This document shows, in pieces, positions 2,160 through 56,703 of a DNA stretch of 64,000 bases; position 1 is the first letter of the stretch, and each line of letters starts with the position of its first letter. A program made the translations under genes and the position numbers. The notes under the pieces are model-generated. The model saw only the letters and a list, made by a program, of their open reading frames with translations. It did not search any database and was not told the DNA's origin. Source of the DNA: Vicinamibacteria bacterium (GTDB lineage: Bacteria; Acidobacteriota; Vicinamibacteria; Fen-336); the NCBI GenBank assembly GCA_023701125.1, contig JAMPXO010000009.1, positions 5,264 to 69,263 of the forward strand, given 5' to 3'.

Positions 2160-2327
2160 TTCGGGGGCGGAGGAGCGTCCGTCCGCGACGGAGCCCCCGA
2201 GGGCCCGAGCGCCGGGCTCTGCCCGGCCCGAGCCGCCCGATCATCGTTCGGGGGCGGAGGAGCGTCCGTCCGCGACGGAGCCCCCGAGGGCCCGAGCGCC
2301 GGGCTCTGCCCGGCCCGAGCCGCCCGA
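2160..2327. repeat. tandem pair of 81-bp repeat units (period 87 bp), a diverged member of the dispersed REP-like family
   Basis: Units 2160-2240 and 2247-2327 are near-identical (GGGGGCGGAGGAGCGTCCGTCCGCGACGGAGCCCCCGAGGGCCC...). They share the GGGGGCGGAGGAG...GCCCCC core with the other loci. Confidence 0.8.
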
Positions 2328-3731
2328 CGGGTGCTCGAAGTAGTTCAAGCCGCTGGCTTCGCTCGCCCGGCGCAGCATCGACTCCGAGATCGCGTTCGCC
2401 TCGCTGACCAGCGCGCCGACGTCGAGGCCGCGGATCTCGCCGCCTTCGACCCGCACACAGCCGTTGACGATCGCCAGGTCCACGGGCGACGGCCAGGGAG
2501 AGAAGACGAGCGCCGCCAGCGGATCGGAGGACGCGCCGGCGTACGACAGCCGGCGGGTGTCGATGGCGATCAGGTCCGCAGCCTTGCCCGGCTCGAGGCT
2601 GCCGATGTCGTCGCGGCCGAGGCAGCGGGCGCCTCCGCGGGTCGCCATCCACAGCACCTCGCGGGCCGTCACCCACTTCGCCGTGTCCTCGACCAGCCGG
2701 TGGGCCAGCAGTGCCTGGCGCAGTTCGGCCAGCATGTTGGACGCGTCGTTGGAAGCCGAGCCGTCGACGCCGAGGCCGACCGGCACCCCCGCCTGGATCA
2801 TCTTCTTGACCGGCGCGATGCCGGAGCCGAGCCGGAAGTTCGAGGACGGGCAGTGGGCGACGCCCGTGCCGGTCTCGGCGAACAGCACGATCTCCTCGTC
2901 GTTCAGGTGCACGCAGTGAGCCAGCCACACGTCGTCGCCGAGCCAGCCCAGCCGGCGCAGGAACTCGACCGGGCGGCAGCCGTAGACCTCTGCGCAGTAG
3001 ACCTCTTCGTCCCGGGTCTCGGCCATGTGGGTGTGCAGCCGCACGCCGTGCTCGCGGGCCATGTCGAGGGTGCGCCTCATCAGGTCCTCGGAGACCGAGA
3101 ACGGCGCGCACGGCGCCAGCGCGATCCGCGTCATCGCCCGCGGCTTGGGGTCGTGGTGCTCGCGGATCAGCCGCAGGCAGTCGGCGAGGATCGTTTCCTC
3201 GTCCTGGCAGACGTCATCGGGCGGCAAGCCGCCCTGGCTCTGGCCGCGGCTCATCGAGCCGCGCGTCGGCTGGAAGCGCATGCCGACCTCGCGCGCCGCC
3301 TCGATCTCGACGTCGATGAAGCGCTCCTGGCCGCGCGGGAACAGGTAGAGGTGATCGGTCGTCGTCGTGCAGCCGGTCAGCAGCAACTCGGCCCAGCCCA
3401 CCCGCGCCGCGGCCCGCACCGCCTTCTGGTCCCAGTAGCGCCAGACCTGGTACAGCTCGGTCAGCCAGCGGAACAGCGGCGCCTCCTGCACCCGCGGCAC
3501 GTTGCGGGTCAGGATCTGCGGCACGTGGTGGTGGGTGTTGACGAAGCCGGGCAGCAGCACGCGGCCGCGCAGGTCGATCACGCGCGCGCCCGCCAGCCGG
3601 TCGGGCGGCGGCTCGCCTTCGCCCAGCGCCGTGATCGCGTCGCCGTCGACGCGGACCCAGGCGTCCTTCAGCACGCGTTGTGCGTCGTCCATCGTGGCGC
3701 ACAGCAGGGCGTTGCGCAGCAGCAGGCTCAT
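2241..3731 (-). CDS. amidohydrolase superfamily protein, 8-oxoguanine deaminase / guanine-deaminase-like
   Basis: LPGFVNTHHHVPQ metal-binding motif, HTHMAETRDE, GVDGSASND. 496 aa. The last roughly 29 codons are encoded by repeat unit B and the stop lies in the inter-unit spacer. Confidence 0.7.
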   Translation of the reverse strand: MSLLLRNALLCATMDDAQRVLKDAWVRVDGDAITALGEGEPPPDRLAGARVIDLRGRVLLPGFVNTHHHVPQILTRNVPRVQEAPLFRWLTELYQVWRYWDQKAVRAAARVGWAELLLTGCTTTTDHLYLFPRGQERFIDVEIEAAREVGMRFQPTRGSMSRGQSQGGLPPDDVCQDEETILADCLRLIREHHDPKPRAMTRIALAPCAPFSVSEDLMRRTLDMAREHGVRLHTHMAETRDEEVYCAEVYGCRPVEFLRRLGWLGDDVWLAHCVHLNDEEIVLFAETGTGVAHCPSSNFRLGSGIAPVKKMIQAGVPVGLGVDGSASNDASNMLAELRQALLAHRLVEDTAKWVTAREVLWMATRGGARCLGRDDIGSLEPGKAADLIAIDTRRLSYAGASSDPLAALVFSPWPSPVDLAIVNGCVRVEGGEIRGLDVGALVSEANAISESMLRRASEASGLNYFEHPSGGSGRAEPGARALGGSVADGRSSAPER

Positions 3732-3769
3732 CGATCGCTCCAGTGGGGGCGGCGCCCCGGCATCGGCCC

Positions 3770-4570: not shown

Positions 4571-4626
4571 GGTTCGTTTCGATTCTAGCCTCGCGCTAGG
4601 ATCGGGAACTTCGCGGAGGGTTCGAC

Positions 4627-13717: not shown

Positions 13718-14065
13718 TCAGTCGAGCGGCGACGGCGAGACCAAGGGCGCGACTTGCGATCGCGTCGCTTCGGCCACCGCCACCGCCGCAGCCGCCGTCT
13801 CACGGTCCGGCCAGAACTCCACGTCGTAGCGAGAGTCGACGCCGTGGCTCGTGAGCTCCCCCAACTCCAGGTCAGCTAGCTGGAGCGACAGCTCGAGCCG
13901 CACGGCGCTTTGCGCGAGTTCCTCCAGGTCATGCGTTCTCGGAATCGCGTGGCCGCGAAGCGCCAGCACTGCCTTCAGGTACTTCTCCGCGGCCTGTCGG
14001 GCATGAAAACAGGCGGTGTCGTAAGGCCCCTCACTGGCGAGCGTCCGTCGCGCGTCCGAGATCAC
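13718..14065 (-). CDS. HEPN-domain protein (putative toxin of a HEPN/MNT pair)
   Basis: FHARQAAEKYLKAVL...IPRTHDLEEL HEPN signature. GTG start 46 nt after the MNT stop, same frame. Confidence 0.7.
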   Translation of the reverse strand: MISDARRTLASEGPYDTACFHARQAAEKYLKAVLALRGHAIPRTHDLEELAQSAVRLELSLQLADLELGELTSHGVDSRYDVEFWPDRETAAAAVAVAEATRSQVAPLVSPSPLD

Positions 14066-14110
14066 TGTCGCCCTTGCGGATCCAGCCGTCCGCGAGACCC
14101 CGCTGATCCT

Positions 14111-14449
14111 TCATCGCGGATACAGGGTTCTCCCTGCCGCCAGGATAGACGTGATGAACGCGTTCGGGACGTCTCGCCACTCGGCGATCTCCTGCGGCGT
14201 CCAGACCACGATGTCCTTCGAAGGAAACAGCCCCAGCAGCGCCCGCCGATAGCGGCCCGCCCGCCGATGGCGAGGGAGATCGGAGTCCTCCACGATCAAC
14301 AAGTCGAGGTCGCTGTCAGGGCTCGCGTCCCCGCGCGCGTGGGACCCGAAGAGCACAATGCGGCTCGGGCTGCCCGACGCGACGATGCGGGCGACGGCCT
14401 CGTCGAGGAGAGCCTCCGTCACGGGTGGGTACTCGACAGCAGCGAGCAT
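14111..14449 (-). CDS. minimal nucleotidyltransferase (MNT antitoxin of the HEPN/MNT pair)
   Basis: RIVLFGSHARGDASPDSDLDLL nucleotidyltransferase motif. ATG 14449 is immediately preceded by TACAAT. Confidence 0.75.
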   Translation of the reverse strand: MLAAVEYPPVTEALLDEAVARIVASGSPSRIVLFGSHARGDASPDSDLDLLIVEDSDLPRHRRAGRYRRALLGLFPSKDIVVWTPQEIAEWRDVPNAFITSILAAGRTLYPR

Positions 14450-20492: not shown

Positions 20493-21401
20493 CTACCGCG
20501 CGGGCATCGGGCGCTCGGCCGCCGCCGCGGCCAGTTCCGCGAGCAGTCCGGTGCCCGCGGGCACGATCGTGACCCGCAAGTCCGGGCTCTCCAGCAGTTG
20601 CTGGGTCTCCAGCACGTCGAACAACGCGCCGGCGACCTCCGGGTCGCGACTGACCTCGGCCAGTGCCGCGCCGACGATGCGCGGGCGCATCGCGCCGGCC
20701 TTCGCGAACTCGACCGCCGCTTCGCGCTCCGCCGTCGAGCGGATCACGTTGACGCGGTTGGAGCCGTCCTGCTGGATCGCCGCGGTCACCTGGCGCAGCC
20801 TGTTGACGACCTTCTGCTCGATCTGCGAGATCATGCCGTGGTCGCGGAAGTGGACCTTGCGGATGTAGACGCTGCCGAGCTTGTAGCCCCACTCCTGCGA
20901 CTTGGCCGAGACCTCCTCGCGCACCGTGCGGCTCATGGTGTGGCGGTCCTCCAGCATGCGCTCGAGCTGCATGTTGCTCAGGCTGCGCACGGTCGCGTTC
21001 GACACGTTGGCACGCAGCGAGCCGGCGGGGTCCGCGTTCTTGTACAGCAGCGCCTGCGGGTCGGAGACGACCATCTCGTACCAGACGCCGATGCCCATCG
21101 GCGCGCCTTCTTCGGAGTTGACCGGCTGGCTGCGCAGGTAGGCCTGGTCGAGCCGCAGGTCGACCCAGTGCTTGCGGCCGAAGAACGGGATCAGCGCCGC
21201 GAACGGCCCGATCCGCAACCACGGGAAGTACAGACCCGGCTCGGAGATCACGTCGCGTACCGTGCCGAACAGCTCGAACACGATGCACTGGCGTTCGCGG
21301 ACGATCACGTACATGCCGAAGGCGCGGGCCAGGCCGAGCAGGATCGGCACGCCGACGAAGCTGACGAAGAACGTGGCGAGGGCAGCGGTCAGGAAGCTCA
21401 C
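20493..21401 (-). CDS. SPFH/Band-7 (stomatin/prohibitin-like) domain protein
   Basis: GTG start overlaps the upstream SPFH stop. N-terminal TM then a band-7 domain. Confidence 0.7.
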   Translation of the reverse strand: MSFLTAALATFFVSFVGVPILLGLARAFGMYVIVRERQCIVFELFGTVRDVISEPGLYFPWLRIGPFAALIPFFGRKHWVDLRLDQAYLRSQPVNSEEGAPMGIGVWYEMVVSDPQALLYKNADPAGSLRANVSNATVRSLSNMQLERMLEDRHTMSRTVREEVSAKSQEWGYKLGSVYIRKVHFRDHGMISQIEQKVVNRLRQVTAAIQQDGSNRVNVIRSTAEREAAVEFAKAGAMRPRIVGAALAEVSRDPEVAGALFDVLETQQLLESPDLRVTIVPAGTGLLAELAAAAAERPMPAR

Positions 21402-22399
21402 GAGCGCACCCCCTCCGCCTGCACGGCGATCAGCGAGCGGCTGCGCGACAGCAGCTTCAACCGCGTGTTCCGCACGTAGGCCTGAAGCGCCCCGGCGCCC
21501 TGGGCCTTCAGCTCGCCGAGCTGCGCCGCCAGCGCCAGCAGCGGTTCGACCTCGGCCTGGGCGTTCAGGGTCTCGATCTCGACCGCCCGCTTCGACTGCA
21601 CGATCTTCTGGTCGGCCGCGGCCTGGGCCAGCGAGATCTCCGACGAGACCTGGTTGTGGGCGGTGTTGATCGCCGCCAGCGCCGAGTCGATCTCCGCAGG
21701 CGGGTCGATGCCCGTGATCAGCGCCGCGTCCAGGATGATGCCGTAGCGCGCCGCGGCCGAGGCGCACTCGTCGTCCATCCGCTCGTTGAGGTTGCGCAGG
21801 TTCTTGCGCAGGTCGTTGATCGAGATGCCCTGGGCGACGCCGAGGTCGGAGCCGCCGGCGGCTTCGATCGCGGCGGTGCGGTCCGGTGCCTCGAAGTTGG
21901 CAATGCGGTCGCGCAGGATCGAGACGAAGTAGCCCATCACGTGCGAGACCGGGTTCTTGACGCCGAACAGGTAGGCGTACAGGTTGCGCTCCGAGACGGT
22001 GTAGCGCAGCTGACCGGTGAGGCCGGTGTTGAGCTGGTCCTTGGTCACGGCCTCGAGCACCTGGCCGTGCTGGTTGGCGTCGGGCTGGTCGGGGTCGTGG
22101 GCGATCGACACCGTCACCGTCGCCACCGAGACCTTGTACACGTCCTGCCACGGGAACTTCCAGGAGAAGCCCGGCCCGATCACCCGCACCTGGGGGTACG
22201 CGTAACGCTCGACTTCTTCGGGGCGCAGGCCGTGGGCCACCGGGTCCTCGAGCGTCGTGTGATCGCCCAGCCGCTGGGCGCGGCCGAACGTCGTGATCAC
22301 CGCCCGCTCGTTGGGGCCGATCGTGTAGAAGCCACCCAGCCCGTACCGGACGAAGAACCAGGCCAGGAACCCGAACGCCACGCCCAACAAAGTCGCCAT
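21398..22399 (-). CDS. SPFH/Band-7 domain protein (HflK/C-like paralog)
   Basis: N-terminal TM, then NERAVITTFGR..., C-terminal coiled-coil. Confidence 0.75.
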   Translation of the reverse strand: MATLLGVAFGFLAWFFVRYGLGGFYTIGPNERAVITTFGRAQRLGDHTTLEDPVAHGLRPEEVERYAYPQVRVIGPGFSWKFPWQDVYKVSVATVTVSIAHDPDQPDANQHGQVLEAVTKDQLNTGLTGQLRYTVSERNLYAYLFGVKNPVSHVMGYFVSILRDRIANFEAPDRTAAIEAAGGSDLGVAQGISINDLRKNLRNLNERMDDECASAAARYGIILDAALITGIDPPAEIDSALAAINTAHNQVSSEISLAQAAADQKIVQSKRAVEIETLNAQAEVEPLLALAAQLGELKAQGAGALQAYVRNTRLKLLSRSRSLIAVQAEGVRS

Positions 22400-22459
22400 G
22401 GGGGGAAACCTCCGTGCCGGGAAGGTAGCAGACCCCGCGCGGCGCGGGTGTGACGGCCG

Positions 22460-23290
22460 CTACCCCAGCGCGGTGTCGAGCACCATCATCAGGGCGAAGC
22501 CGATCATCAGGCCCAGCGTGGCCGCGGTCTGGTGGCCGTTGCGGTGGGTCTCCGGGATCACCTCGTGGGAGACGACGAAGATCATCGCGCCGGCAGACAG
22601 GCCGAGGCCGATTGGATAAGCGAGGGCGAGACCGCTCGACAGCGACACGCCCAGCAGCGCGCCGGCGGGCTCCAGCAGGCCGGTGCCAGCCGCGACCGCC
22701 ACCGACAGCAGCGGGCGGAAGCCCGCGCTGCGCAGGGCCAGCGCGACGGCCAGCCCTTCCGGCACGTCCTGCAAGGCGATGGCGGTGGTCAGCGGCAGGC
22801 CCACGGCGAGGTCGGCCTGGGCGAAGCTGACGCCGATCGCCATGCCCTCGGGCAGGTTGTGCAGGGCGATCGCGAACACGAACAGCCACAGCCGGCCGCA
22901 GTGCTCGTGGCCCGGCCCGCAGGGGCCGGCGCTCTCGTGCTCGTGCGGCGTGAAGCGGTCGAGGCCGAGCATCAGCAGCACCCCGAGCGTCATCCCCAGC
23001 ACCACCACCGCGGAGCCGCGCGGGGCGGACCCCGTCAGGGCGGTGGCGGCCTCCAGGCCCGGCAGCAGCAGCGAGAACGCGCTGGCCGCCAGCATCATCC
23101 CCGCCGCCCAGCCCAGCAGCATGTCTTCGATCCGCTGCGGCAACCCGCGCAGGACCAGCGCCGGAGCGGCGCCCAGCGCGGTCGCCCCGAACGCCACGAA
23201 CCCGCCCATCAGCGCCAGCCGCACGGCCGCCGCGTTGGATGCGACGACGTGGGCGAGGCCCTGAACGAGCAGGCCGAGCACCACCAGCAA
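22460..23290 (-). CDS. ZIP-family divalent metal transporter (ZupT-like)
   Basis: HNLPEG and HEVIPE signature motifs, His-rich loop HEHESAGPCGPGHEHCG. The track ORF runs upstream into a repeat copy (ATGs at 23395/23404 are repeat-encoded). Start provisionally placed at TTG 23290 (or GTG 23284) downstream of the repeat. Confidence 0.65.
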   Translation of the reverse strand: MLVVLGLLVQGLAHVVASNAAAVRLALMGGFVAFGATALGAAPALVLRGLPQRIEDMLLGWAAGMMLAASAFSLLLPGLEAATALTGSAPRGSAVVVLGMTLGVLLMLGLDRFTPHEHESAGPCGPGHEHCGRLWLFVFAIALHNLPEGMAIGVSFAQADLAVGLPLTTAIALQDVPEGLAVALALRSAGFRPLLSVAVAAGTGLLEPAGALLGVSLSSGLALAYPIGLGLSAGAMIFVVSHEVIPETHRNGHQTAATLGLMIGFALMMVLDTALG

Positions 23291-23366
23291 CGCGACCCCG
23301 GAGGCCGCCGCCGCCCACGCGTTGCGGCGGGCGTGGTCGCGCAGCAGCGCCCCCCAGCCCACCGTC

Positions 23367-23447
23367 GGGTTCCGATGTCGGGCAGAGCCCGCCATCGGTC
23401 CCATGGGGGCTACGTCGCGAACGGAGCTCCTCCGCCCCCAAGCCCCG
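23367..23447. repeat. single 81-bp copy of the dispersed REP-like element (reverse orientation)
   Basis: GGGTTCCGATGTCGGGCAGAGCCCGCCATCGGTCCCATGGGGGCTACGTCGCGAACGGAGCTCCTCCGCCCCCAAGCCCCG is near-identical to the 31.4 kb and 56.5 kb copies. Confidence 0.85.
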
Positions 23448-23481
23448 TCGTGCTCGCCGTGCCGGTCGCCATGCTGCCGGG

Positions 23482-24390
23482 CTACCGCTTCTTCTTCGCG
23501 GCCTTGCCGCCGCCCTCGGCCTCGAGCAACGCGCGGGCCTCGGCGAAACCACGCCGCTGCTCTTCGCCCACCCTGGGGAAGTGCAGGTCGAGGCCCTCGA
23601 GTGTGTCGACGACAGCACGCGCGACCGCCAGCCGCGTGAACCACTTGTTGTCCGCGGGGATCACGTACCAGGGCGCGTCCTTCGTCGCAGTGCGGCGGAT
23701 GGCGTCCTCGTAGGCCGCCTGGTACTCGTCCCAGTGGCCGCGCTCGCGCACGTCGCCCGCCGAAAACTTCCAGTTCTTCTCCGGCTCGTCGAGCCGGGAC
23801 AGGAAGCGCCGCTTCTGCTCCGCCTTCGACACGTGCAGGAAGAACTTGACGATCTTCACGCCGTTGCGGGACAGGTAGCGCTCGTGGGCGGCGATGTCCT
23901 CGCAGCGCTGTTCCCAGATGCGCTTCGTCACCAGCTCCTCCGGCAGGTGCTGGCCCTTCAGGTACTCGGGGTGGACGCGGACGACCAGTACCTCCTCGTA
24001 GTACGAGCGGTTGAAGATGCCGATCCGCCCGCGCTCCGGCAGGCAGCGCGCGGTGCGCCACAGGAAGTCGTGGTCGAGCTCCTCGGGCGAGGGCGACTTG
24101 AACGAGAAGACCTGCACGCCCTGCGGGTTGACGCCGGACATCACGTGCTCAACCGCGCCGTCCTTGCCCGCCGCGTCCATCGCCTGGAACACGAGCAGCA
24201 CGGCCCAGCGGTCCTGGGCGTAGAGCTTCTCCTGCAGCGCAGCCAGTTGCTCGACACCCGCGGCCAACGACTCCCTGGCCTTGTCCTTGCTCTTGAGCCC
24301 GCCGGTGTCGCCGGGGTCGATGTCACGCAGCCGGAAGCGGCGACCGTCGGTGATGCGGTACGGGGCGGCGAAGTCCTTGTCCTGCGGCAT
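23482..24390 (-). CDS. polyphosphate kinase 2 (PPK2) family phosphotransferase
   Basis: Walker-A-like FQAMDAAGKDG, lid region. Start re-set to MPQDKDF, preceded by GGAGGGAG. Confidence 0.85.
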   Translation of the reverse strand: MPQDKDFAAPYRITDGRRFRLRDIDPGDTGGLKSKDKARESLAAGVEQLAALQEKLYAQDRWAVLLVFQAMDAAGKDGAVEHVMSGVNPQGVQVFSFKSPSPEELDHDFLWRTARCLPERGRIGIFNRSYYEEVLVVRVHPEYLKGQHLPEELVTKRIWEQRCEDIAAHERYLSRNGVKIVKFFLHVSKAEQKRRFLSRLDEPEKNWKFSAGDVRERGHWDEYQAAYEDAIRRTATKDAPWYVIPADNKWFTRLAVARAVVDTLEGLDLHFPRVGEEQRRGFAEARALLEAEGGGKAAKKKR

Positions 24391-24491
24391 CGGTCTCCCT
24401 CCGGGATCGGCGGCGCGGCAAGCATCCCATGGGTTGTATGCTGATCGCCTGCCGTTTCGCCCTCGCTCGCGGGCGACTCCAGCAAGAGGCC

Positions 24492-25814
24492 ATGCTCTCC
24501 ACCCGGGACGCGGAACTCGCACATGCGTTCGTCGAGGCGTCGTCGGACGCCCTGATCGTCGCCGACGATCGCGGGCGGATCCTGTTCGCGAACGCGTCCG
24601 CCGAGGCCCTGCTGGGCCACGAGCCCGGGTCGCTGCGCAGCCACGAGGTCGACGAGCTGGTGCCCGCGCGCTTCCACCAGCATCGGCAGCAGCGCGAGGA
24701 GTTCGCTGCCGATCCCCACCCGCGCCCGATGGGCCGCGGCCTGGAGCTGTTCGCGCGCCACGCCGCCGGCCACGAGATCCCGGTGGACATCGCGCTGACG
24801 CCGATCGTGGTGGGCGGGCGGCGGCTGATCGGCTGCGCGCTGCGCGACCTGCGCGGCCGCAGCCAGGGGCCTGATGCCCTGCGCATCCAGGCCACCGCCC
24901 TGCGCTCCGCCGCCAACGGCATCGTGATCACCGACAAGCAGGGCTACATCACGTGGGTCAATCCCGCCGCCTGCACGATCACCGGCTACCGCGCGTTCGA
25001 GCTGATCGGCCAGCACACCCGCATCCTCAAGTCCGGGCACCACGACCCCGCCTTCTACAAGGCGATCTGGGAGACGATCACGCGCGGCGAGACGTGGTCG
25101 GGGACGATCGTCAACCGCCGCAAGGACGGCACCCTGTGCGACGAACAGCAGACGATCGCGCCCGTCTCCGACGACCAGGGCTGGGTCACCCACTTCATCG
25201 CCATCAAGCAGGACGTGACCGAGCAGCGGCGGACCCAGTCCGCGCTGGCCGCGGCCCACGCGGAGTTGGCCGCGCGGCTGGTGGAGATCGAGAGCCTCAA
25301 CTCCATGCTGCGCGAGCAGGCGGTCCGTGACCCGCTGACCGGCCTGCACAACCGCCGCTTCCTGCACGAGTCGATCGAGCGCGAGATCGCCCGCGCGGCG
25401 CGCAGCGGCCAGCCGATGGCGGTCGTCGCCCTGGACCTCGATCACTTCAAGGCGGTCAACGACGTCCACGGCCACGCCGCCGGGGACGCCGTGCTGCGAC
25501 ACGTCGGCCTGCTGCTGCGCAGCCACGTGCGGGCCTCGGATCTGGCCTGCCGCACCGGCGGCGAGGAGTTCGCGGTCGTGTTGCCGGGCAGCCCGCTGCC
25601 GATCGCGCTCGACCGCGCGGAGGCCTGGCGCACCGCGCTGGCGGCGGCCCCGGTCGAGACCGCCGGCACCGCCGTCGCCTGCACGATGTCCGTCGGCGTC
25701 GCCCTGCTGCACGCCGAGGGCGAGACCTTCGAGCAGTGCTGGGCGCGCGCGGACGGCGCGCTCTACCGCGCGAAGCAGCAGGGCCGCAACCGCGTGGTCT
25801 GCGCGGAGGACTGA
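24492..25814 (+). CDS. PAS-PAS-GGDEF diguanylate cyclase
   Basis: Two PAS-like blocks and RTGGEEF with DLDHFKAVND. Confidence 0.8.
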   Translation: MLSTRDAELAHAFVEASSDALIVADDRGRILFANASAEALLGHEPGSLRSHEVDELVPARFHQHRQQREEFAADPHPRPMGRGLELFARHAAGHEIPVDIALTPIVVGGRRLIGCALRDLRGRSQGPDALRIQATALRSAANGIVITDKQGYITWVNPAACTITGYRAFELIGQHTRILKSGHHDPAFYKAIWETITRGETWSGTIVNRRKDGTLCDEQQTIAPVSDDQGWVTHFIAIKQDVTEQRRTQSALAAAHAELAARLVEIESLNSMLREQAVRDPLTGLHNRRFLHESIEREIARAARSGQPMAVVALDLDHFKAVNDVHGHAAGDAVLRHVGLLLRSHVRASDLACRTGGEEFAVVLPGSPLPIALDRAEAWRTALAAAPVETAGTAVACTMSVGVALLHAEGETFEQCWARADGALYRAKQQGRNRVVCAED

Positions 25815-25878
25815 GGCCGCCTCTGGCCCGCGGCCATCCAGTTGTACGCACCAGAACGCGGCGCTAGGCTCGGCCCGC

Positions 25879-26316
25879 ATGAAGGTCACCCGCGCTTCGT
25901 CCGGTTCCACGTGGGAACGCACGTTCGGCTACGCGCGCGCGGCGCGGGCGGGCGACACGATCGTCGTGTCCGGCACCGTCGGCGCCGACGCCCTCGGCCG
26001 GCCGGCGACGCCCGACGCCCACGGCCAGACGCGGGCGGCGCTGGCGATCGTCGACGAGGCGCTGCGCAAGCTGGGCGGCTCGCTCGACGGCGTGCTGCGG
26101 CTGCGCGTCCATTTCGTCGACCCCGAGGTCGGGCCCGGCGTGATGGCGGCGCTGCACGAGGCCTTCGGCGAATCGCTTCCCGCGCTGACGACGCTCCGGG
26201 TCGCAGGGCTGGCCGATCCCGGGTTCCTGGTGGAGCTGGAAGTCGACGCGGTCGCGCTCGACGACGACCCGCGGACGACGCGCCTTCGCCCGGCGTGGGA
26301 CGAAGAAGCGGACTAG
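25879..26316 (+). CDS. RidA/YjgF-family protein
   Basis: 145 aa. TIVVSGTVG..., size and fold consistent with the Rid family. Confidence 0.65.
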   Translation: MKVTRASSGSTWERTFGYARAARAGDTIVVSGTVGADALGRPATPDAHGQTRAALAIVDEALRKLGGSLDGVLRLRVHFVDPEVGPGVMAALHEAFGESLPALTTLRVAGLADPGFLVELEVDAVALDDDPRTTRLRPAWDEEAD

Positions 26317-26331
26317 CAAGGAAGGCACAGC

Positions 26332-30731: not shown

Positions 30732-30734
30732 CGC

Positions 30735-30884: not shown

Positions 30885-31022
30885 GAAGCGGAAGCAAGGG
30901 GGGGCCTGACCCCGGAGATTAGGACGGGACGCCGGCTGGGGGCGAGCATTTCGTGCCGGCCTCGGGTAGTTTCGGAGGATGCGTCCCGGCAGGGGGCCGG
31001 GCGCAGAGGAGGTCGACCAAGG

Positions 31023-31385: not shown

Positions 31386-31390
31386 CCTCC

Positions 31391-31575
31391 CGGCGCCGGA
31401 ACCCACCGGGGGTTTGGGGGCGGAGGAGTTCCGTTTGCGACGTAGCCCCCATGGGACCGGCGCCGGGTTCATCCCGGCGTCGGAACCCACCGGGGGTTTG
31501 GGGGCGGAGGAGTTCCGTTTGCGACGTAGCCCCCATGGGACCGGCGCCGGGTTCATCCCGGCGTCGGAACCCGAC
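31391..31575. repeat. tandem pair (plus a partial) of 84-bp REP-like units
   Basis: GGAACCCACCGGGGGTTTGGGGGCGGAGGAGTTCCGTTTGCGACGTAGCCCCCATGGGACCGGCGCCGGGTTCATCCCGGCGTC occurs twice head-to-tail. It has internal palindromes CCCATGGG and CGCCGGG-ttcat-CCCGGCG. Confidence 0.9.
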
Positions 31576-31635
31576 GGGCGGCCCTCCCTGGCGAGTGGCC
31601 GCCCCGCGTCGTTTCTGCGCCGCGCCGGAGGACGA

Positions 31636-32871
31636 ATGAGAACCCGCACCGTGGCCTTCACCCTCGCGAGCCTGCTGCTGCCGGCCGCGGCATCCGCAGC
31701 GGAGGCGCCCGACGTGCTCGACCAGATCCTGCGCGGGCGGCCGGAGCTCGCCACCGTGCTGCAGCAGGCCGAGCGGCACCGGCTGCAGATCCTCTACACC
31801 CAGATCGACCGCGACGCGGCCAACAAGCCGACCTTCCGCTCGTACGGCTACCGGCTCGACGACCCGCGCTACTTCTACCCCGCGAGCACGGTGAAGCTGC
31901 CCGCCGCAGTGCTGGCGCTCGAGAAGCTGCACGACCTGAAGGTCCCGGGCCTGACCCGCGACACGCCGCTGCGGATCGAGGCCGGCACGCCGCGCCAGAC
32001 GGCCGTCGACCGCGACGAGAGCAAGGCCGACGGCCTGCCGACGATCGCCCACTTCGTGAAGAAGATCTTCCTGGTCAGCGACAACGACGCCTTCAATCGG
32101 CTGTTCGAGTTCCTCGGCCAGCGCGGGCTCAACGAGCGATTGTGGGAGCTTGGCCACCAGGACGCCCGCATCCTGCGCCGACTGGAGGCCGGGATGGACG
32201 ACGCGGAGAACCGCGTCACCAACCCGTTCGTGTTCTTCCAGGGGCCGAAGGAGATCCACCGCCAGCCGCTCGCCCGCAACGACGCGGAGTGGACGATCGA
32301 CAGGCCCGACGTGCGCCAGGGTCGCGGCTACATCAAGGACGGCGCGCTGGTCGAGCAGCCGATGGACTTCAGCCGTTCCAACTTCCTGTCGCTGAAGACG
32401 CTGCAGGACGTGCTCAAGGCCGTCGTGTTCCCCGAGGCGATGCCGCAGGAGAAGCGCCTCCGGTTGAGCGAGGACGACCGCCGCTTCCTGCTGCGCGCGA
32501 TGTCGACGCTGCCCCGCGAGAGCACCGAGCCCGCCTACCCGAACCGCGACGAGTTCCCCGACGCGTACGTGAAGTACTTCCTGTACGCCGGCTCGAAGCA
32601 GCCGATCCCCGCCAACATCCGCATCTACAACAAGGTGGGCCAGGCCTACGGCTACCTGCTCGACGACGCCTACGTGGTCGACTTCGACAACGGCGTCGAG
32701 TTCCTGCTGACCGCGGTGCTGCAGGTCAACGACGACCAGGTCTACAACGACGACAAGTACGAGTACGACACCGTCGGCTTCCCGTTCCTGGCCCAGCTCG
32801 GCCGCGCGGTGTACGAGCACGAGCTGAAGCGCCCCCGCCCCCGCCGCCCGGACCTGTCCCACCTGCGTTGA
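31636..32871 (+). CDS. class-A beta-lactamase-like serine hydrolase (secreted)
   Basis: Signal peptide. STVK (SxxK), SDN, and a K-V-G (KTG-like) motif. GGAGGA RBS. The track ORF start at 31270 is an artefact of translating through the repeats. Confidence 0.7.
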   Translation: MRTRTVAFTLASLLLPAAASAAEAPDVLDQILRGRPELATVLQQAERHRLQILYTQIDRDAANKPTFRSYGYRLDDPRYFYPASTVKLPAAVLALEKLHDLKVPGLTRDTPLRIEAGTPRQTAVDRDESKADGLPTIAHFVKKIFLVSDNDAFNRLFEFLGQRGLNERLWELGHQDARILRRLEAGMDDAENRVTNPFVFFQGPKEIHRQPLARNDAEWTIDRPDVRQGRGYIKDGALVEQPMDFSRSNFLSLKTLQDVLKAVVFPEAMPQEKRLRLSEDDRRFLLRAMSTLPRESTEPAYPNRDEFPDAYVKYFLYAGSKQPIPANIRIYNKVGQAYGYLLDDAYVVDFDNGVEFLLTAVLQVNDDQVYNDDKYEYDTVGFPFLAQLGRAVYEHELKRPRPRRPDLSHLR

Positions 32872-32896
32872 GGCTTGTGCCGGGCGCCCGCCCGCC

Positions 32897-32980
32897 GACG
32901 GGGTTTGGGGGTGGAGGCCCTCCGTTCGGGCCGGAGCCCCCATGGGACCGGCGACGGGTTCATCCCGGCGCCGGAACCCA
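32897..32980. repeat. single diverged copy of the REP-like element
   Basis: GGGGTTTGGGGGTGGAGGCCCTCCGTTCGGGCCGGAGCCCCCATGGGACCGGCGACGGGTTCATCCCGGCGCCGGAACCC. Confidence 0.85.
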
Positions 32981-32997
32981 TCCCGATGCGACGACGC

Positions 32998-33417
32998 TCA
33001 GCGCCAGAGCTTCACGCCGGCGCGGCGGGCGGCCTCGCGCAGCGGACCGTCCTTGCAGGCGAGCTCCAGCCTTCGCCGCTGCGCCAGCTCGAGATAGGCC
33101 GCGTCGTAGACGGAGATCTCGTGCGTCATCGCCAACTCGGCCAGCCGCGAGAAGGCCAGCGCGGCCATCTCGTGGTCCACGCGAAGCGCGAGGCCGCCCA
33201 GCCAGCCGAGTGCCTGCTGCCGCTCCTCGGCGGTGAGCTTCTTCCTGCGGACCAGCACCGTCAGCGCGTTCGCGACCTCCAACGGCCACAGCGCCGGCAC
33301 CTCGACGGCCGCACCTTGGACCAGGGCGTCGAGCATCGACTCGGTCGCCGACGTCGCCTGTCCCGGATGTACCCAGGCCACGGCGACTGATGCGTCTGCC
33401 ACGAAGGCGGGTTTCAA
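32998..33417 (-). CDS. vapC: PIN-domain toxin VapC
   Basis: PIN fold: acidic residues (FVADASV ... YDAAYLELA). 139 aa. Confidence 0.8.
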   Translation of the reverse strand: MKPAFVADASVAVAWVHPGQATSATESMLDALVQGAAVEVPALWPLEVANALTVLVRRKKLTAEERQQALGWLGGLALRVDHEMAALAFSRLAELAMTHEISVYDAAYLELAQRRRLELACKDGPLREAARRAGVKLWR

Positions 33418-33671
33418 GCGCGCCCGTCGTCGATGGCCGCCCGGACCTCGCGGTCACTGAGGCCGGCCTTGCTCCGCCGCCGGATCTGCTGCTGCAAGCC
33501 ACGCAGGCCAGCGACGGCGCGACCCACCGCCTCCAGCCGTTGGCCTCCCTCCGGGATCACGCGAGCGACGGGCTTGTCGTGGCGGGTGATGACGATCTCC
33601 TCGCCGCGGGCCACCCGGCCCAGCAGCGCGCCGAAGTGGGTCTTGGCCTCCAGGGCCGTCACTCTGGCCAC
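33414..33671 (-). CDS. vapB: Phd/YefM-type antitoxin VapB
   Basis: 85 aa. GTG start with GGGAGGGAA RBS. ATGA overlap with vapC. TGATCA-N5-TGATCA inverted boxes in its promoter. Confidence 0.8.
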   Translation of the reverse strand: MARVTALEAKTHFGALLGRVARGEEIVITRHDKPVARVIPEGGQRLEAVGRAVAGLRGLQQQIRRRSKAGLSDREVRAAIDDGRA

Positions 33672-33747
33672 AAATTCCCTCCCGTTCGATATTGATCAGT
33701 CGATGATCATTCTAGCCGGTCGCGAGGTCCGGTAAGCTCGCGGCTCC

Positions 33748-35430
33748 ATGGCCGCCCTCGCCCTGTTCGTGATGATCGTGCTCGCCGCCGGGTACCGCCT
33801 GTACGGCGGCTGGGTGGCGGCGCAGTTCTCCCTCGACGACGGCCGCACCACGCCCGCCGTCTCGCGCGAAGACGGGGTCGATTTCGTGCCCACCCGTCCG
33901 TTCTACCTGATGGGCCAGCACTTCAGCGCGATCGCCGCCGCCGGCCCGATCGCCGGCCCGATCCTCGCCGCGCAACAGTTCGGCTGGCTGCCGTGCATCC
34001 TCTGGATCGGGCTCGGCGTGATCTTCATCGGCGCAGTGCACGATTTCTCCGCGCTGGTCGCCTCCGTGCGCCACGAGGCGCGCTCGATCGCGGAGATCGT
34101 GCGCATCCACCTCGGCACGCGGGCGTGGAAGGCGATCATGGCCTTCATCTGGCTGGCCCTCGTCTACGTGATCCTGGCCTTCACGGACATCACCGCCGCC
34201 ACGTTCGTGGGCGTGACGGAGGACATCGCGGGTCTCTCCTTCTCCTTCAATCCCGGCGGCGCGGTCGCGCTGGCGTCGGTGCTCTACCTGGTGCTGTCGA
34301 TGCTGCTCGGCCTCGCCGAGCGCTACCTGCACCCGCCGCTGTGGCTGACGACGGTGATCGGCGTGCCGGCCACGCTGCTGTGCGTCTGGCTCGGCACCCA
34401 GTACTCGACGCTGCTGGTCGCGGACGCCCGCACCTGGGGCGTGATCATCCTGCTCTATTGCCTGGTCGCCTCGCTGACCCCCGTGTGGCTGCTGCTTCAG
34501 CCGCGCGGATATCTCGGCGGCTTCGTGCTCTACATGGCGATCGCGGTCGGCCTGATCGGCATCTTCTTCGGCGGCTTCGAGATCCAGCAGGACGCGTTCA
34601 AGACCTGGCACGCGCCCGGCGCCACCGGCGCGCTGTTCCCGTTCCTGTTCGTGACCATCGCCTGCGGCGCCTGCTCCGGCTTCCACGGCCTCGTCTGCTC
34701 GGGCACCACGTCGAAGCAGATCGCCCACGAATCGGACACGCGGCCCGTCGGCTACGGCGCGATGCTGCTCGAGGGCTTCGTGGCGCTGATCGCGCTGTCG
34801 ACCGTGATGATCGCGGTGCCGGCCGAGCTCGCCGGCAAGGGCCCGGGGGCCATCTACGGCGCCGGCCTCGGCCGCTACCTGACCGTGTTGATCGGCGAAC
34901 AGCACCTGCTGTTCGCCACGACCTTCGGCGCGATGGCGTTCTCGACCTTCGTCTTCGACACCCTCGACGTCACCACCCGGCTCGGCCGCTACATCGTCCA
35001 GGAGCTGTTCGGGGCGACCAGCCGCACGGGCGCCTGGATCGGCACCGCGGTCACCGTGCTGGTGCCGCTCGCGCTGCTGCTGCTGGCCGGCGAGGGCGCG
35101 TACCGCTCGTTCTGGGTCCTGTTCGGCACCTCGAACCAGTTGCTGGCGGCGCTGAGCCTGCTCGGCATCTCGGTGTGGCTGCGGCGAACCGGGCGGCGCA
35201 GTCTCTTCACGCTGCTGCCGATGGCGTTCGTGCTGACGATCACGCTGGCCTCGCTGGTGATCCAGATCCGGGCCGCGGCGGCCCAGGTCGCGGCCCGCGG
35301 CGTCGCCTTCGATGTGGGGGATCTCAACGGTTTCGTCTCCGTGCTGCTCTTCGGGCTGGCGCTGGTCCAGGTCGTGGAGGCCGTGCGGGCCTGGAAGCGC
35401 CCCCTGGACGCTGCCGGGGCCATCGCGTAA
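33748..35430 (+). CDS. cstA: carbon starvation protein A (peptide transporter family)
   Basis: Strong CstA-like N-terminus (FYLMGQHFSAIAAAGPIAGPILAAQ..) and length. Confidence 0.85.
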   Translation: MAALALFVMIVLAAGYRLYGGWVAAQFSLDDGRTTPAVSREDGVDFVPTRPFYLMGQHFSAIAAAGPIAGPILAAQQFGWLPCILWIGLGVIFIGAVHDFSALVASVRHEARSIAEIVRIHLGTRAWKAIMAFIWLALVYVILAFTDITAATFVGVTEDIAGLSFSFNPGGAVALASVLYLVLSMLLGLAERYLHPPLWLTTVIGVPATLLCVWLGTQYSTLLVADARTWGVIILLYCLVASLTPVWLLLQPRGYLGGFVLYMAIAVGLIGIFFGGFEIQQDAFKTWHAPGATGALFPFLFVTIACGACSGFHGLVCSGTTSKQIAHESDTRPVGYGAMLLEGFVALIALSTVMIAVPAELAGKGPGAIYGAGLGRYLTVLIGEQHLLFATTFGAMAFSTFVFDTLDVTTRLGRYIVQELFGATSRTGAWIGTAVTVLVPLALLLLAGEGAYRSFWVLFGTSNQLLAALSLLGISVWLRRTGRRSLFTLLPMAFVLTITLASLVIQIRAAAAQVAARGVAFDVGDLNGFVSVLLFGLALVQVVEAVRAWKRPLDAAGAIA

Positions 35431-35438
35431 CTGCCCGT

Positions 35439-35522
35439 CGGTTCCGTCGCCGGGGGAACCCGGCGCCGGTCCCATGGGGCCTACGTCGCCAACGGCGGCT
35501 CCTCCGCCCCAAACCCCCGTCG
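35439..35522. repeat. single copy of the REP-like element (reverse orientation)
   Basis: CGGGGGAACCCGGCGCCGGTCCCATGGGGCCTACGTCGCCAACGGCGGCTCCTCCGCCCCAAACCCCCG, starting 9 bp after the cstA stop. Confidence 0.85.
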
Positions 35523-35692
35523 AAGTTCGCGAAACCGGGCTCCTCATGGGCGCCTCATCGACGGCTCGGCAACAACATTCAATTTTCACGAAACCCCCGC
35601 GTCGCTGCCGGCGTCTTACTCGGCAGTCCAGCACATTCGACGCGGGCGCCCGAGGGGGGCTTCGGAGCGGCCTGCGAGGAGCACAGCACGCG

Positions 35693-35947
35693 ATGAAGCG
35701 GATCCTGCCCACCCCGGACGGTCGCCCCGGCCTGCGCCACCTGCTCGACGCATACGAGCGCCAGATCATCGAGGCCGCGCTGCGCACCCGCCACGGCAAC
35801 CAGCGCCGCGCCGCGGCCGATCTCGGGCTGCTGCCGACGACGCTGCACGAGAAGATGAAGCGGCTGGGCCTGCTGCGGCGCGAGCGGGCGGCCGCGGTGC
35901 CGGCAGCGAGCGCGAGCGGCGTGGCGGGCTGGGCCCAGGCCAGCTGA
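35693..35947 (+). CDS. small Fis-family HTH DNA-binding protein
   Basis: 84 aa. QRRAAADLGLLPTTLHEKMKRLGL is a Fis-type C-terminal HTH. Confidence 0.55.
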   Translation: MKRILPTPDGRPGLRHLLDAYERQIIEAALRTRHGNQRRAAADLGLLPTTLHEKMKRLGLLRRERAAAVPAASASGVAGWAQAS

Positions 35948-35954
35948 CCGCGGG

Positions 35955-37340
35955 TCAGGCGCGCGCGGTCTCGTCGAGCCGGCGGCATCCCTCCAGCAGG
36001 AGCTGCGCGAAGTTCTCGCCCAGCGCGGCACCGCGCGCGGCGGGCCCCGGCCGGAACTCGAAGTCGCCGCGGGTCAGGCCGATCACCCCGTAGACCGCGG
36101 CCTCGGCCTCGAGCCCCGGGCCGCGTGCGCCGACGATCTCGCCAAGGGCGAAGTCCACGTCCCACGACTGCTGGCCCGAGCGCAGCTCGAGCCGGCCCGT
36201 CATGCGGCCGAGGTGACACATCTGCAGTGCGCCGGGCGCGCCGACCGCTTCCAGCCGGCCCTCGACCCCGGTGCCAGGCGCGCGGCGCTCGCGGCGGCCG
36301 AGGTCGGAGAAGCGCTTGAGGATCAGCCGCACGCGGATCAGCAACTCGCGCACCGGCGTGTCCTTGGAGAGGAACTCGTCCGCGCCGGCCTCCAGGCCCT
36401 CGTAGCGCTGCTCGTAGCCGTCCCAGCCCGAGAGGAAGATGAGCGGCACGTGGCGAGTCAGGCTGTGGGCGCGGATCTCGCGGCACAGGGCGAGGCCGTC
36501 CATGCCACTCATCGCGACGTCGGTGAGGATCAGCCACGGCCGCCGCTCCAGCGCGACGTGGACCGCCTCTTCGCCGCCCGAGGCCTCCAGCACCTCGAAG
36601 CCCTGGGCCAGGAACAGGCTCTTCAGGAAGCTGCGGAACGTGAGGTTGTCGTCGACCAGCAGCACGCTGCGCAGTGGCTGCGGGATGTCGTCGAAGCTCG
36701 GCAGCTCGGGCAGCGAGCCCGGCAGCCGGCTCGGCTCCGGCGTGGCGACGACCTCGCGGGTGGGATCGAGCTCGCGGAACAGGACGCGGGCCCCGGGTGC
36801 CGCCTGGACCGCGCCCGCGACCACCGCCCCGGCGTGGACGAGGGCCGTGCCGCCGCCCTCGACCGAGACGAGCCCGCTGCGCTGCTCGCGGCCGACCTCT
36901 TCGAGCAGCTCGCGAGCGCCGTCGGGGCCGGCGGTCTCGGCGACGGTGCCGCTGCGGTCTGCGAGCGACTCCAGGATGCGAGCGATGCGGCGCAGCAGCA
37001 GCTCGCGGGTGAACGGCTTGGTCATGTAGTCGACGACACCGTAGCGGAAGGCCTCGACCCGCGAGGTGAACTCGCGGTGAGCGGTCAGGAAGACGACGGG
37101 GCGATCGACGGTCTCGGGGTCGGCCTGCAGCGCGCGCAGCACACCGTAGCCGTCGAGGCCGGGCATCGAGATGTCGCACAGCACGAGGTCGGGCTGCTCG
37201 CGGCGCACGATCGGCAGCGCGTCGTGGGGATCGCCGGTCGAGACGACCCGGTAGCCGGCCGACCCGAGCAATGCCTCGAGCAGCTCCCGGATCGCGGGCT
37301 CGTCCTCGACGACGACGATGGAGCGCTGGCGATCGGGCAC
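35955..37340 (-). CDS. dual receiver-domain response regulator with C-terminal DUF4388-like domain
   Basis: Two REC domains (IVVVEDEPAIRELL..DLVLCDISMPGLDG and VLLVDDNLTFRSFL..LILTDVAMSGMDG). C-terminal domain GRMTGRLELRSGQQSWDVDFALGEIV. Confidence 0.75.
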   Translation of the reverse strand: MPDRQRSIVVVEDEPAIRELLEALLGSAGYRVVSTGDPHDALPIVRREQPDLVLCDISMPGLDGYGVLRALQADPETVDRPVVFLTAHREFTSRVEAFRYGVVDYMTKPFTRELLLRRIARILESLADRSGTVAETAGPDGARELLEEVGREQRSGLVSVEGGGTALVHAGAVVAGAVQAAPGARVLFRELDPTREVVATPEPSRLPGSLPELPSFDDIPQPLRSVLLVDDNLTFRSFLKSLFLAQGFEVLEASGGEEAVHVALERRPWLILTDVAMSGMDGLALCREIRAHSLTRHVPLIFLSGWDGYEQRYEGLEAGADEFLSKDTPVRELLIRVRLILKRFSDLGRRERRAPGTGVEGRLEAVGAPGALQMCHLGRMTGRLELRSGQQSWDVDFALGEIVGARGPGLEAEAAVYGVIGLTRGDFEFRPGPAARGAALGENFAQLLLEGCRRLDETARA

Positions 37341-52564: not shown

Positions 52565-52594
52565 GCTGGTCCCGGGCCCTAGAATGCACACGTC

Positions 52595-53496: not shown

Positions 53497-53519
53497 GCGC
53501 CCGCCATGGTAATCGTCCC

Positions 53520-53547: not shown

Positions 53548-53553
53548 CCACGC

Positions 53554-53913: not shown

Positions 53914-53915
53914 CG

Positions 53916-56504: not shown

Positions 56505-56506
56505 CG

Positions 56507-56703
56507 GCGCGCGGGGGTTTACTGGGTTCCGTTGCCGGGCAAAGCCCGTCACCGGTCCCATGGGGGCTACGTCGCAAACGGAAGCTCCTCCGCCCCCAAA
56601 CCCCAGCCGGGTTCCGTTGCCGGGCAAAGCCCGTCACCGGTCCCATGGGGGCTACGTCGCAAACGGAAGCTCCTCCGCCCCCAAACCCCAGCCGGGTTCC
56701 GTT
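56507..56703. repeat. tandem array of REP-like units (2 full 85-bp units plus an 11-bp partial, reverse orientation)
   Basis: GGGTTCCGTTGCCGGGCAAAGCCCGTCACCGGTCCCATGGGGGCTACGTCGCAAACGGAAGCTCCTCCGCCCCCAAACCCCAGCC repeated at 56524 and 56609. Fills the whole gap between the permease stop (56504) and the DinB-like stop (56704). Confidence 0.9.

Follow-up and report, generated by a model that had tools for sequence, protein, structure and literature searches.

By the working definition used for prokaryotes, MITEs are shorter than 500 bp, end in inverted repeats of 4-30 bp and show direct repeats flanking the younger copies; typically, both the elements and their targets are AT-rich (PMC10969869). 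Rickettsia palindromic elements (RPE) are small palindromic repeats that insert recurrently in frame and add a peptide to unrelated proteins (PMC10969869). REPs are single hairpins (imperfect palindromes) of 20-40 nt that carry an unpaired GTAG or CGTC at their end; they form inverted dimers and owe their movement to a RAYT, itself flanked by the repeats, which does not duplicate the target (PMC3733652, PMC3116915). Here we describe a repeat that is probably a non-autonomous transposable element of MITE type, specific to its lineage and carried by soil Vicinamibacteria. The family is real and apparently unnamed, and its kind is well known; no description of the element was found in the literature on its core sequence or on the repeat families of Acidobacteria and Vicinamibacter.

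The window, that is, the whole 64-kb stretch of DNA that was analysed, belongs to a MAG of the Vicinamibacteria (Acidobacteriota) and contains nine full units and two 5'-truncated fragments at six loci (Table 1). All nine full units were detected by each of three independent methods, namely a gapless repeat finder, an nhmmer profile and a covariance model run with its filters off. The covariance model recovers nine units in the window at E <= 6e-8, the next best match having E = 0.09, and the core patterns match the window 3 and 5 times versus 0.00 expected from dinucleotide shuffles. The original prediction of a dispersed family with nine units at six loci is thus confirmed by three methods against a chance expectation of 0, and the variant that it had recognised as diverged at the first locus proves to be a distinct subfamily (2152-2332). 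Identity is 100% among the units of one array and 64-90% between units of different loci. Nor is the repeat confined to the window: units with 85-92% identity are present in a few related Vicinamibacteria-type MAGs and in metagenome contigs, the rest of those loci being unalignable to the window. With a strict pattern, no more than 2 copies are found in ACD1 (GCA_025994075.1) and 6 in ACD2 (WYBL01), both related MAGs, and every pattern match has the size of a unit; the hundreds of copies per genome foreseen earlier are an extrapolation from the density in the window.

Table 1. Repeat units and fragments in the window. Orientation + means that the GGGGGCGGAGGAG strand lies on the + strand of the window.
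Feature	Coordinates	Orientation	Description and context	Evidence includes
u1	2152..2244	+	Subfamily 2; repeat copy 2159-2240; first of head-to-tail pair u1/u2, period 87	Repeat finder, nhmmer, covariance model
u2	2246..2332	+	100% identical to u1	Repeat finder, covariance model
u3	23360..23450	-		Covariance model
5'-truncated fragment	~31388..31404	+	3' end of a unit, opens array; 3-5 nt past TAA at 31383-31385	
u4	31405..31488	+	Period 84	Repeat finder, nhmmer, covariance model
u5	31489..31579	+	77-nt core identical to u4; 3' of it a native hairpin, then ATG of beta-lactamase-like gene 60 nt downstream	Repeat finder, nhmmer, covariance model
u6	32896..32986	+	Between convergent genes: beta-lactamase-like stop 32869-71, vapC stop 32998-33000	Covariance model
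u7	35432..35522	-	Element proper 35441-35514 (74 nt)	Covariance model
u8	56517..56608	-	Period 85; 13-16 nt past MacB-like stop codon (56502-04)	Repeat finder, covariance model
u9	56609..56693	-	100% identical to u8	Repeat finder, covariance model
5'-truncated fragment	56690..56703	-	AACGGAACCCGGCT; opens array in unit orientation; abuts DinB-family stop codon at 56704-06	

The core measures about 74-77 bp; with one copy of a flanking direct repeat included, the unit was first described as 82-87 bp long. It consists of two hairpins and is GC-rich (66-83% GC), as is its target. The 45-nt 5' hairpin module is conserved in sequence (92% across species), whereas in the 3' hairpin only the structure is kept, with compensatory changes at 11 of its 15 pairs; by halves, conservation is 92.5% (5') versus 79.7% (3'). 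The extensive folding that had been foreseen is hence backed by covariation. The interior of hairpin 1 (24 nt, including GGAGGAG) is near-invariant and free of covariation, and the 5' module also has G-tracts. One pairing in this interior, GCGTC with GACGT, was dropped from the structure model because it shows no covariation. The tetranucleotide at the foot of hairpin 1 is internal and variable, being GTAG in 16 of 26 copies, GGAG in 8 and GCAG in 2. Judging by the boundaries of u7 and by the alignment, the putative inverted repeat at the termini comprises no more than 4-5 bp, GGTT(Y)...(R)AACC, and could be due to chance.

The stable and conserved fold is the point in favour of a small RNA gene family, a self-cleaving ribozyme or a tRNA-derived SINE. 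However, a search of the whole window with Rfam 15 gives 0 matches at the gathering score and only spurious microRNA models at E <= 10, and ARAGORN detects 0 tRNA or tmRNA in the window. Furthermore, promoter space is absent, no promoters were found, and copies lie in both orientations and inside ORFs. A known ncRNA family or tRNA-derived SINE, which had been put forward as the identity that would overturn the repeat interpretation, therefore has no Rfam, tRNA or tmRNA support, and we regard explanations of this class as highly improbable.

The insertion itself can be read from empty and filled sites. On the near-isogenic contig L030, where CstA is 98% identical and the flanks are nearly identical to the window at the u7 site, the sequence downstream of cstA is TAACT-CCGCGTCG-ACGTTCGCG, an empty site with a single CCGCGTCG. 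The window has TAACT-GCCCGTCG-(74 nt)-CCCCGTCG-AAGTTCGCG in this place, the direct repeats of u7 being located at 35433-35440 (GCCCGTCG) and 35515-35522 (CCCCGTCG); the three 8-mer copies at this clean site are alike except for 1-2 positions. In ACD1, PPK2 and ZIP overlap (ATGA), while in the window u3 occupies the junction of these genes and is flanked by CaCGACGG and CcCGACGG, the same direct-repeat pattern. Among 20 independent copies, the 5' flank agrees better with the 3' flank of the same copy than with those of other copies (permutation p = 0.00045), and the repeats are copy-specific, with CCCTACTT present twice in L013 and GCCCGTCGG twice in L009. Insertion duplicates about 8 bp of GC-rich target, roughly CCCGNCGG, a length estimated from a single clean pair of empty and filled sites, a further pair that is diverged, and a statistical test. 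Empty or different sites in L024, L025, L029, L030 and L032 mark the dispersed copies as insertion-polymorphic: the gap between a 120-aa gene and the beta-lactamase-like gene holds 2.25 units in the window, one internally deleted unit in L024 and no unit in L025 (ACD1) or L029, and the u6 site is without a unit in L030 and L032. The non-autonomous mobility that was originally proposed thus finds support in empty orthologous sites and the 8-bp target duplication, and the accompanying statement that no transposase is present agrees with a Pfam search, in which none of the ~60 window ORFs matched a transposase, integrase or HUH family.

Two larger vehicles were considered and rejected. The 2.8-kb segment u6-vapC-vapB-cstA-u7 is absent from ACD1 and is seemingly bounded by inverted units, like a composite transposon. 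In the closer relatives L030 and L032, cstA directly follows the beta-lactamase-like gene, without units and without vapBC, and u6 and u7 are only 77% identical; together, these observations indicate separate events and not a composite transposon. Carriage as phage or plasmid cargo was discarded as well, since viral contigs, plasmids and phages yielded no match.

A REP-like element could instead have been moved as ssDNA by a Y1 HUH enzyme (RAYT or the TnpA of IS200/IS605), which would recognise the folded hairpins and insert beside a short motif resembling the 3' end of the element. A motif of this description, ~CCGNCGG, is common to the 5' flank of the unit and its 3' end; GTAG stands at the foot of hairpin 1 in the majority of copies, and the hairpins are kept by compensatory change with no strand bias, as G-U and A-C counts of 11 vs 7 do not single out an acting strand. 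Y1 transposases with associated repeats are, moreover, known in Acidobacteria (PMC3733652). Nevertheless, GTAG is neither terminal nor conserved, hairpins 1 and 2 are dissimilar, the arrays contain no inverted REPIN/BIME doublets, and there is no Y1 gene in the window and no RAYT in the annotated locus L025. The copy-specific flanking repeats and the single 8-mer at the empty L030 site, moreover, signify a duplication, which is not a product of Y1 transposition. Overall, we consider this route improbable. The units do resemble REPs, BIMEs and REPINs in that they are GC-rich extragenic hairpins past stop codons, persist for a long time in their lineage and keep to a conserved 'master' sequence. 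However, two hairpins in ~80 nt make the unit twice as large as a REP, no GTAG or CGTC tag is terminal, and inverted dimers are absent, which together disfavour a REP/RAYT system. The element had been likened to either a REP/BIME or a RUP/Correia type; the evidence favours the second, MITE-type half of that comparison, on account of the direct repeats and head-to-tail arrays, and speaks against the first.

Arrays are head-to-tail throughout, in the window (2152, 31405 and 56517) as well as in L003 and L010, and their period equals the element plus one direct repeat. They may have arisen when the two copies of the direct repeat underwent slippage or unequal exchange or, alternatively, when the element re-inserted into the regenerated target; either route would give both this period and the identity within arrays. 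Head-to-tail arrays are also formed by the mycobacterial interspersed repetitive units (MIRU), which measure 46-101 bp, occupy many intergenic loci of a GC-rich genome, are oriented as the flanking operon genes and contain short ORFs overlapping the neighbouring stop and start codons. The family described here shares with MIRU its tandem arrays, dispersed loci, GC-rich genome and some periods that are multiples of three. It differs in its mixed orientation, in its frequent single copies, and in the target duplications and empty sites that indicate transposition.

With respect to genes, the units in the window lie 0 to 31 nt from the nearest stop codon, so that their reported placement within 10 bp of gene ends holds approximately. 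Their description as intergenic fails for two of them, which overlap coding sequence (2246-2327 and 23360-23450). On the - strand, an amidohydrolase ORF (2241-3731) runs into u2, which provides its final 28 codons (PSGGSGRAEPGARALGGSVADGRSSAPER), and the amidohydrolase stop codon (2241-2243) falls in the u1/u2 junction. Unit u3 is located 31 nt past the PPK2 stop, in what was ancestrally the 5' coding part of the ZIP transporter gene, and the ancestral ZIP ATG (23472-23470) now starts a 20-codon ORF that is terminated by a TAG of u3. Outside the window, in-frame insertions are found in at least six genes. The hosts include the activation loop of a Ser/Thr kinase, a BNR-type protein, a lipase-like protein and a HIT/PLD-like protein; an exhaustive protein search with the unit-encoded peptide adds only three true hosts to those four, and a word-indexed protein search with the peptide as query gave no significant match. 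In-frame copies were seen in L001, L005, L008, L009, P0242, P0243 and P0245, besides the C-terminus of the amidohydrolase in the window. Recurrent in-frame insertion into unrelated ORFs is thus a behaviour in common with RPE; it does not amount to membership, because taxon and sequence differ, and kinship in sequence is not expected. RPE are ~100-150 bp, AT-rich and found in Rickettsia, whereas the units here are ~80 bp, GC-rich, mostly intergenic and found in Acidobacteriota.

The favoured site directly past stop codons invites a functional reading, in which the repeat would be a structured element of use to the host, either an RNA that acts as an insulator or stabilises 3'-UTRs or a DNA/protein-binding site (like the REP/BIME sites for gyrase or IHF), with its sequence under purifying selection and its spread secondary. 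The greater conservation of the 5' half and the near-invariant interior of hairpin 1 are in line with this. So are the orthologous copies in ACD1 and ACD2: an in-frame copy is identical at 86/86 positions versus 82.6% in its flanks, and another at 82/87 (94%) versus 84%. On the basis of these alignments, the stronger conservation of orthologous copies than of flanking coding DNA points to a constraint beyond selfish spread. On the other hand, the units are in sense with the upstream gene at 3 loci and antisense at 3, with 3 loci lying between convergent genes. The occurrence in both orientations noted earlier is hence mixed and without bias relative to transcription, and no single RNA sense is in use. 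The unit ends in GGAACCCGACGG in one sense and in AAACCCCC in the other; since its hairpins have no trailing T-run, the intrinsic terminator role that had been suggested is unsupported, and in a scan of 22000-36500 no terminator-like site coincides with any unit. In addition, a native hairpin persists 3' of the units at locus C, the genes neighbouring the units are unrelated to one another, the same sites lack the element in close relatives, and copies also reside in frame inside proteins. A host function of this sort is therefore unlikely in our estimation.

The MITE-type reading that we favour agrees with the known prokaryotic examples (Correia/NEMIS of Neisseria, RUP of pneumococcus, ERIC, and QMITE of Coxiella) in many respects. 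These are likewise small (under 100-500 bp), non-coding and dispersed, form stable stem-loops, carry direct repeats from target duplication (7-9 bp in QMITE2), and are polymorphic for presence and absence; most copies lie at gene ends, with occasional in-frame intragenic ones. The element described here, with its core far below 500 bp, codes for no transposase, and its flanking direct repeats are evident from the L030 empty site, the flank test and the ZIP site. A transposase encoded elsewhere in the genome would mobilise it in trans, presumably by recognising the short termini, GGTT...AACC, together with the conserved 5' module. Copies survive at places of low harm: just past stop codons in either orientation, or in frame in tolerant parts of proteins.

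Several observations count against the MITE reading. For a MITE, an inverted repeat of 4-5 bp is about as short as the definition allows, element and target are both GC-rich, and the related MAGs have few copies. Head-to-tail arrays, compensatory evolution of an internal hairpin and cross-species conservation of the 5' module are also unlike MITEs, and neither the compensatory change nor the 5' conservation is needed by a double-strand DDE mechanism. The superior conservation of orthologous copies over flanking coding DNA belongs here as well. There is a slim chance that the 5' module has been recruited as a structural switch, or as a site bound by a protein of the host or the element, or that an undescribed enzyme requiring ssDNA makes the 8-bp duplication. 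To our knowledge, no characterised class of prokaryotic transposase combines a requirement for a folded single strand with an 8-bp target duplication.

Taken together, our results add a MITE-like family in which element and target are both GC-rich, hosted by the Vicinamibacteria, a soil lineage that is poorly studied and mostly uncultured. They also extend 'peptide-adding' in-frame insertions of the RPE type from Rickettsia to free-living Acidobacteriota. For work with MAGs, the element matters in that it breaks short-read assemblies, lengthens or shortens called ORFs and can give rise to spurious start codons, while strains might be told apart by its insertion polymorphism. Finally, the strongly conserved 5' module provides a defined sequence with which a candidate binding partner may be tested.

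The repeat family that the original prediction had read from the window is real. The repeats can be seen by direct reading where they had been placed, a gapless repeat finder recovers the families with no other repeat in the window coming near them, and searches with core patterns give 3 and 5 matches where dinucleotide-preserving shuffles of the window (G+C 72.6%) predict 0.00. With an nhmmer profile made from the nine units, the window yields nine full copies and no more, also when filters are off. A calibrated covariance model, run there with filters off, gives nine matches with E <= 6e-8; all weaker matches are noise or echoes of the palindromic 3′ hairpin on the reverse strand. Units of one array are 100% identical, and identity between loci is 64-90%; the pair at the first locus, previously regarded as a diverged variant, forms a distinct subfamily. 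The other two arrays each open with a 5′-truncated fragment, the 3′ end of a further unit.

The neighbouring genes, identified by a GC3-based gene call and Pfam, have nothing in common among the six loci. Each locus has at least one stop codon at a distance of 0-31 nt, a looser fit than the 10 bp from gene ends first proposed; three loci occupy the gap of a convergent gene pair, and no locus separates divergent genes. The units run in the sense of the upstream gene at three loci and against it at the other three, in keeping with the two orientations already noted. Pfam scans of the ~60 window ORFs likewise agree that no transposase is present, and find no integrase or HUH protein. The suggested terminator role is not upheld: no T-run follows the hairpins, and a terminator scan of 22000-36500 finds nothing at the units.

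Repeat loci (units u1-u9) and other features; coordinates are those of the window unless a contig is named, and units are described by their neighbouring genes
Feature	Coordinates	Strand	Description
u1/u2	2152-2332 (u2, 2246-2332)	+ (u2)	amidohydrolase and HxlR
Gene pair	13718-14422	-	small nucleotidyltransferase (NTP_transf_2, MNT-like; 14111-14422) and adjoining uncharacterised ORF
ZIP gene	22460-23472	-	first nine ancestral codons lost to u3; predicted start would have to be GTG at 23362, directly after u3
u3	23360-23450	-	PPK2 and ZIP
DUF1203 remnant	30735-30884	-	49 residues, matching only the C-terminal end (profile positions 71-116 of 116)
u4/u5	at 31388		hypothetical protein and beta-lactamase-like serine hydrolase
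u6	32896-32986	+	beta-lactamase-like serine hydrolase and VapC
VapC (PIN), Phd/YefM antitoxin	32998-33662	-	between beta-lactamase-like gene and cstA
Hydrolase 3′ end and spacer remnant	~33715-33750		GGTAAGCTCGCGGCTCCATG, just upstream of cstA
cstA	33748-35430		protein 100% identical to MCM2254707.1
u7	35432-35522	-	CstA and Fis-type HTH gene
HTH_8 leader	35570-35692		~120 nt, non-coding, upstream of small Fis-type HTH_8 gene; TTCAATTTTCACGAAACC ... GGCGTCTTACYCGGCAGTCCAGCACATTGACGCGGGCGGCCCGAGGGGGGCTTCGGAGCGGC
u8/u9	at 56703		MacB-like permease and DinB-family protein
Unit remnant	L025 (ACD1) 21134-21175		5′-truncated; gives the called ATG of a DUF72 gene

Across 26 distinct copies aligned, the 5′ half of the unit reads GGGGGTTTGGGGGCGGAGGAGCGTCCGTTCGCGACGTAGCCCCC(ATG)GGG and is 92.5% identical to the consensus, versus 79.7% for the 3′ half. 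Standard pairs fill 86.9-89.6% of the cells of a two-hairpin structure, compared with only 37-52% in a control with the 3′ partners slid by 1-3 columns; thirteen pairs show changes on both sides, a count reached by 0 of 500 shuffles. Next to the G5/C5 stem of hairpin 1, 17 copies have a U-A pair and all the other 9 a C-G pair, and 11 of the 15 pairs of hairpin 2 show compensatory changes, over about nine stem variants. The 24-nt interior of hairpin 1, including GGAGGAG, is conserved in sequence and gives no covariation signal. Given 11 G-U and 7 A-C pairs, no strand preference is readable. Single-sequence folds are stable, though only moderately more so than shuffles (z -0.9 to -3.4), and an array folded as DNA has z = -3.7. 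The extensive folding predicted for the element is backed by this covariation.

Syntenic contigs were reached through homologues of the beta-lactamase-like protein and CstA, at protein identities of 98% (L030, L031), 94% (L024), 91% (L032) and 83-84% (L029 and L025, the latter from the related MAG ACD1). Before the beta-lactamase-like gene, the window has 2.25 units, L024 a single unit with an internal deletion, and L030 a unit at the contig edge, this Logan contig beginning inside the unit (L030 1-27); L025 and L029 have no unit, and an ordinary hairpin with TTTT stands in its place. At the PPK2/ZIP junction of ACD1, the PPK2 stop overlaps the ZIP start (ATGA). In the window, u3 follows codon 9 of the ancestral ZIP frame, between CaCGACGG and CcCGACGG, and its insertion leaves a stub of 20 codons, with GTG as the new ZIP start. 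Downstream of cstA, L030, whose flanks are nearly identical to those of the window, reads TAACT-CCGCGTCG-ACGTTCGCG, and the window TAACT-GCCCGTCG-[74 nt]-CCCCGTCG-AAGTTCGCG; the target is thus duplicated over 8 bp.

When 20 independent copies are compared, the 5′ and 3′ flanks of a given copy resemble each other more than flanks from different copies do (mean 5.85 vs 5.21 of 8; permutation p = 0.00045), and clear direct repeats are CCCTACTT at L013 and GCCCGTCGG at L009, each present twice. Flanks from different copies nevertheless match well, which points to a shared target preference, about CCCGNCGG. The array period of 84-87 nt is the sum of the element (74-77 nt) and one direct repeat, as would be expected if slippage or unequal exchange had taken place between the direct repeats on either side of one insertion or, alternatively, if the element had re-inserted into the regenerated target.

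Other features of the window also vary among these contigs. The gene cstA is shared at this position by the window, L030, L031 and L032, whereas L024, ACD1 and L029 lack it. The vapC/antitoxin pair is found here in the window only, the flanking genes being 12 nt apart in L030 and L032; together with the hydrolase remnant, this suggests that the toxin-antitoxin module came, with u6, by recombination. The HTH_8 leader is almost invariant in six genomes (window, L024, L025, L029, L030, L032), the adjacent coding DNA being only 81-92% identical; it has no Rfam match at gathering and could be a conserved promoter, operator or 5′-UTR structure. Since L029 has an intact 156-residue DUF1203 gene at the corresponding place, the window remnant is probably a pseudogene fragment. 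The nucleotidyltransferase gene and its neighbour may be a HEPN/MNT-type toxin-antitoxin pair.

Pattern scans of species genomes and metagenomes find copies in ACD1, ACD2 (a second related MAG) and elsewhere. A degenerate pattern of the conserved core matches only 10 stretches in one genome per species from 185,579 species: 2 in ACD1 and 6 in ACD2, both Vicinamibacteria/Acidobacteria MAGs, and the remainder on single contigs assigned to Armatimonadetes and Actinomycetota, possibly through mis-binning. The short contigs L003 (JACPDV010000033.1) and L010 (JBQTIP010000202.1), binned to these phyla, carry typical units, among them a heterogeneous head-to-tail pair, and represent either mis-binned Vicinamibacteria contigs or cross-phylum transfer. 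A looser core pattern matches 13 stretches in the metagenome collection, mostly from the same organisms as in the species-genome scan, and 0 in viral contigs; plasmids and phages give no BLAST match to the repeat. Between the window and all these outside loci, the repeat alone aligns (85-92% identity). Furthermore, when 1.84 billion protein representatives are searched exhaustively with HMMER, the unit-encoded peptide is found in only three genuine host proteins. Given so few pattern stretches and protein hosts, we conclude that the family is real but rare and lineage-restricted.

Some units in ACD1, ACD2 and further contigs are spanned by an unbroken coding phase, with no stop codon. Translation gives four proteins with an in-frame insert of 29-30 residues: a Ser/Thr kinase, in its activation loop (L001), a BNR-repeat protein (L008), a lipase-like protein (L009) and a HIT/PLD-like protein (L005). 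One of the three hosts from the protein search has two arrays in opposite orientation, and one was placed on a contig, L033. In the window, the amidohydrolase owes its final 28 residues and its stop codon to u2. Such in-frame intragenic copies are described for Rickettsia palindromic elements and some other MITEs (PMC10969869).

Two insertions are common to ACD1 and ACD2. The kinase copy is identical at 86/86 positions, with flanks at 82.6%, and the L006/L007 copy at 82/87, the differences lying at its edges, with flanks at 84.3%. Thus, copies persist through speciation and evolve more slowly than the coding DNA beside them, which could reflect cis-requirements of a mobilising enzyme, concerted evolution or a host function.

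No Rfam family matches the repeat, it is without tRNA features, and full-text literature searches on the core sequence and on Acidobacteria or Vicinamibacter repeat families gave no account of it. REP/REPIN-RAYT elements carry a GTAG/CGTC tag at the terminus, consist of one hairpin of 20-40 nt and form inverted dimers (PMC3733652); the repeat shows none of these traits. It agrees with the working definition of MITEs in being small, non-coding, polymorphic and flanked by direct repeats (PMC10969869), although the inverted repeat at its termini, GGTT/AACC, is marginal and so GC-rich a sequence is unusual for MITEs (PMC10969869). Taken together, the findings are best explained by a small, mobile, non-autonomous repeat of MITE type with intragenic copies like those of Rickettsia palindromic elements, a new family of a known kind; as the L025 remnant and the L030 contig edge illustrate, it disturbs gene calling and breaks short-read assemblies.
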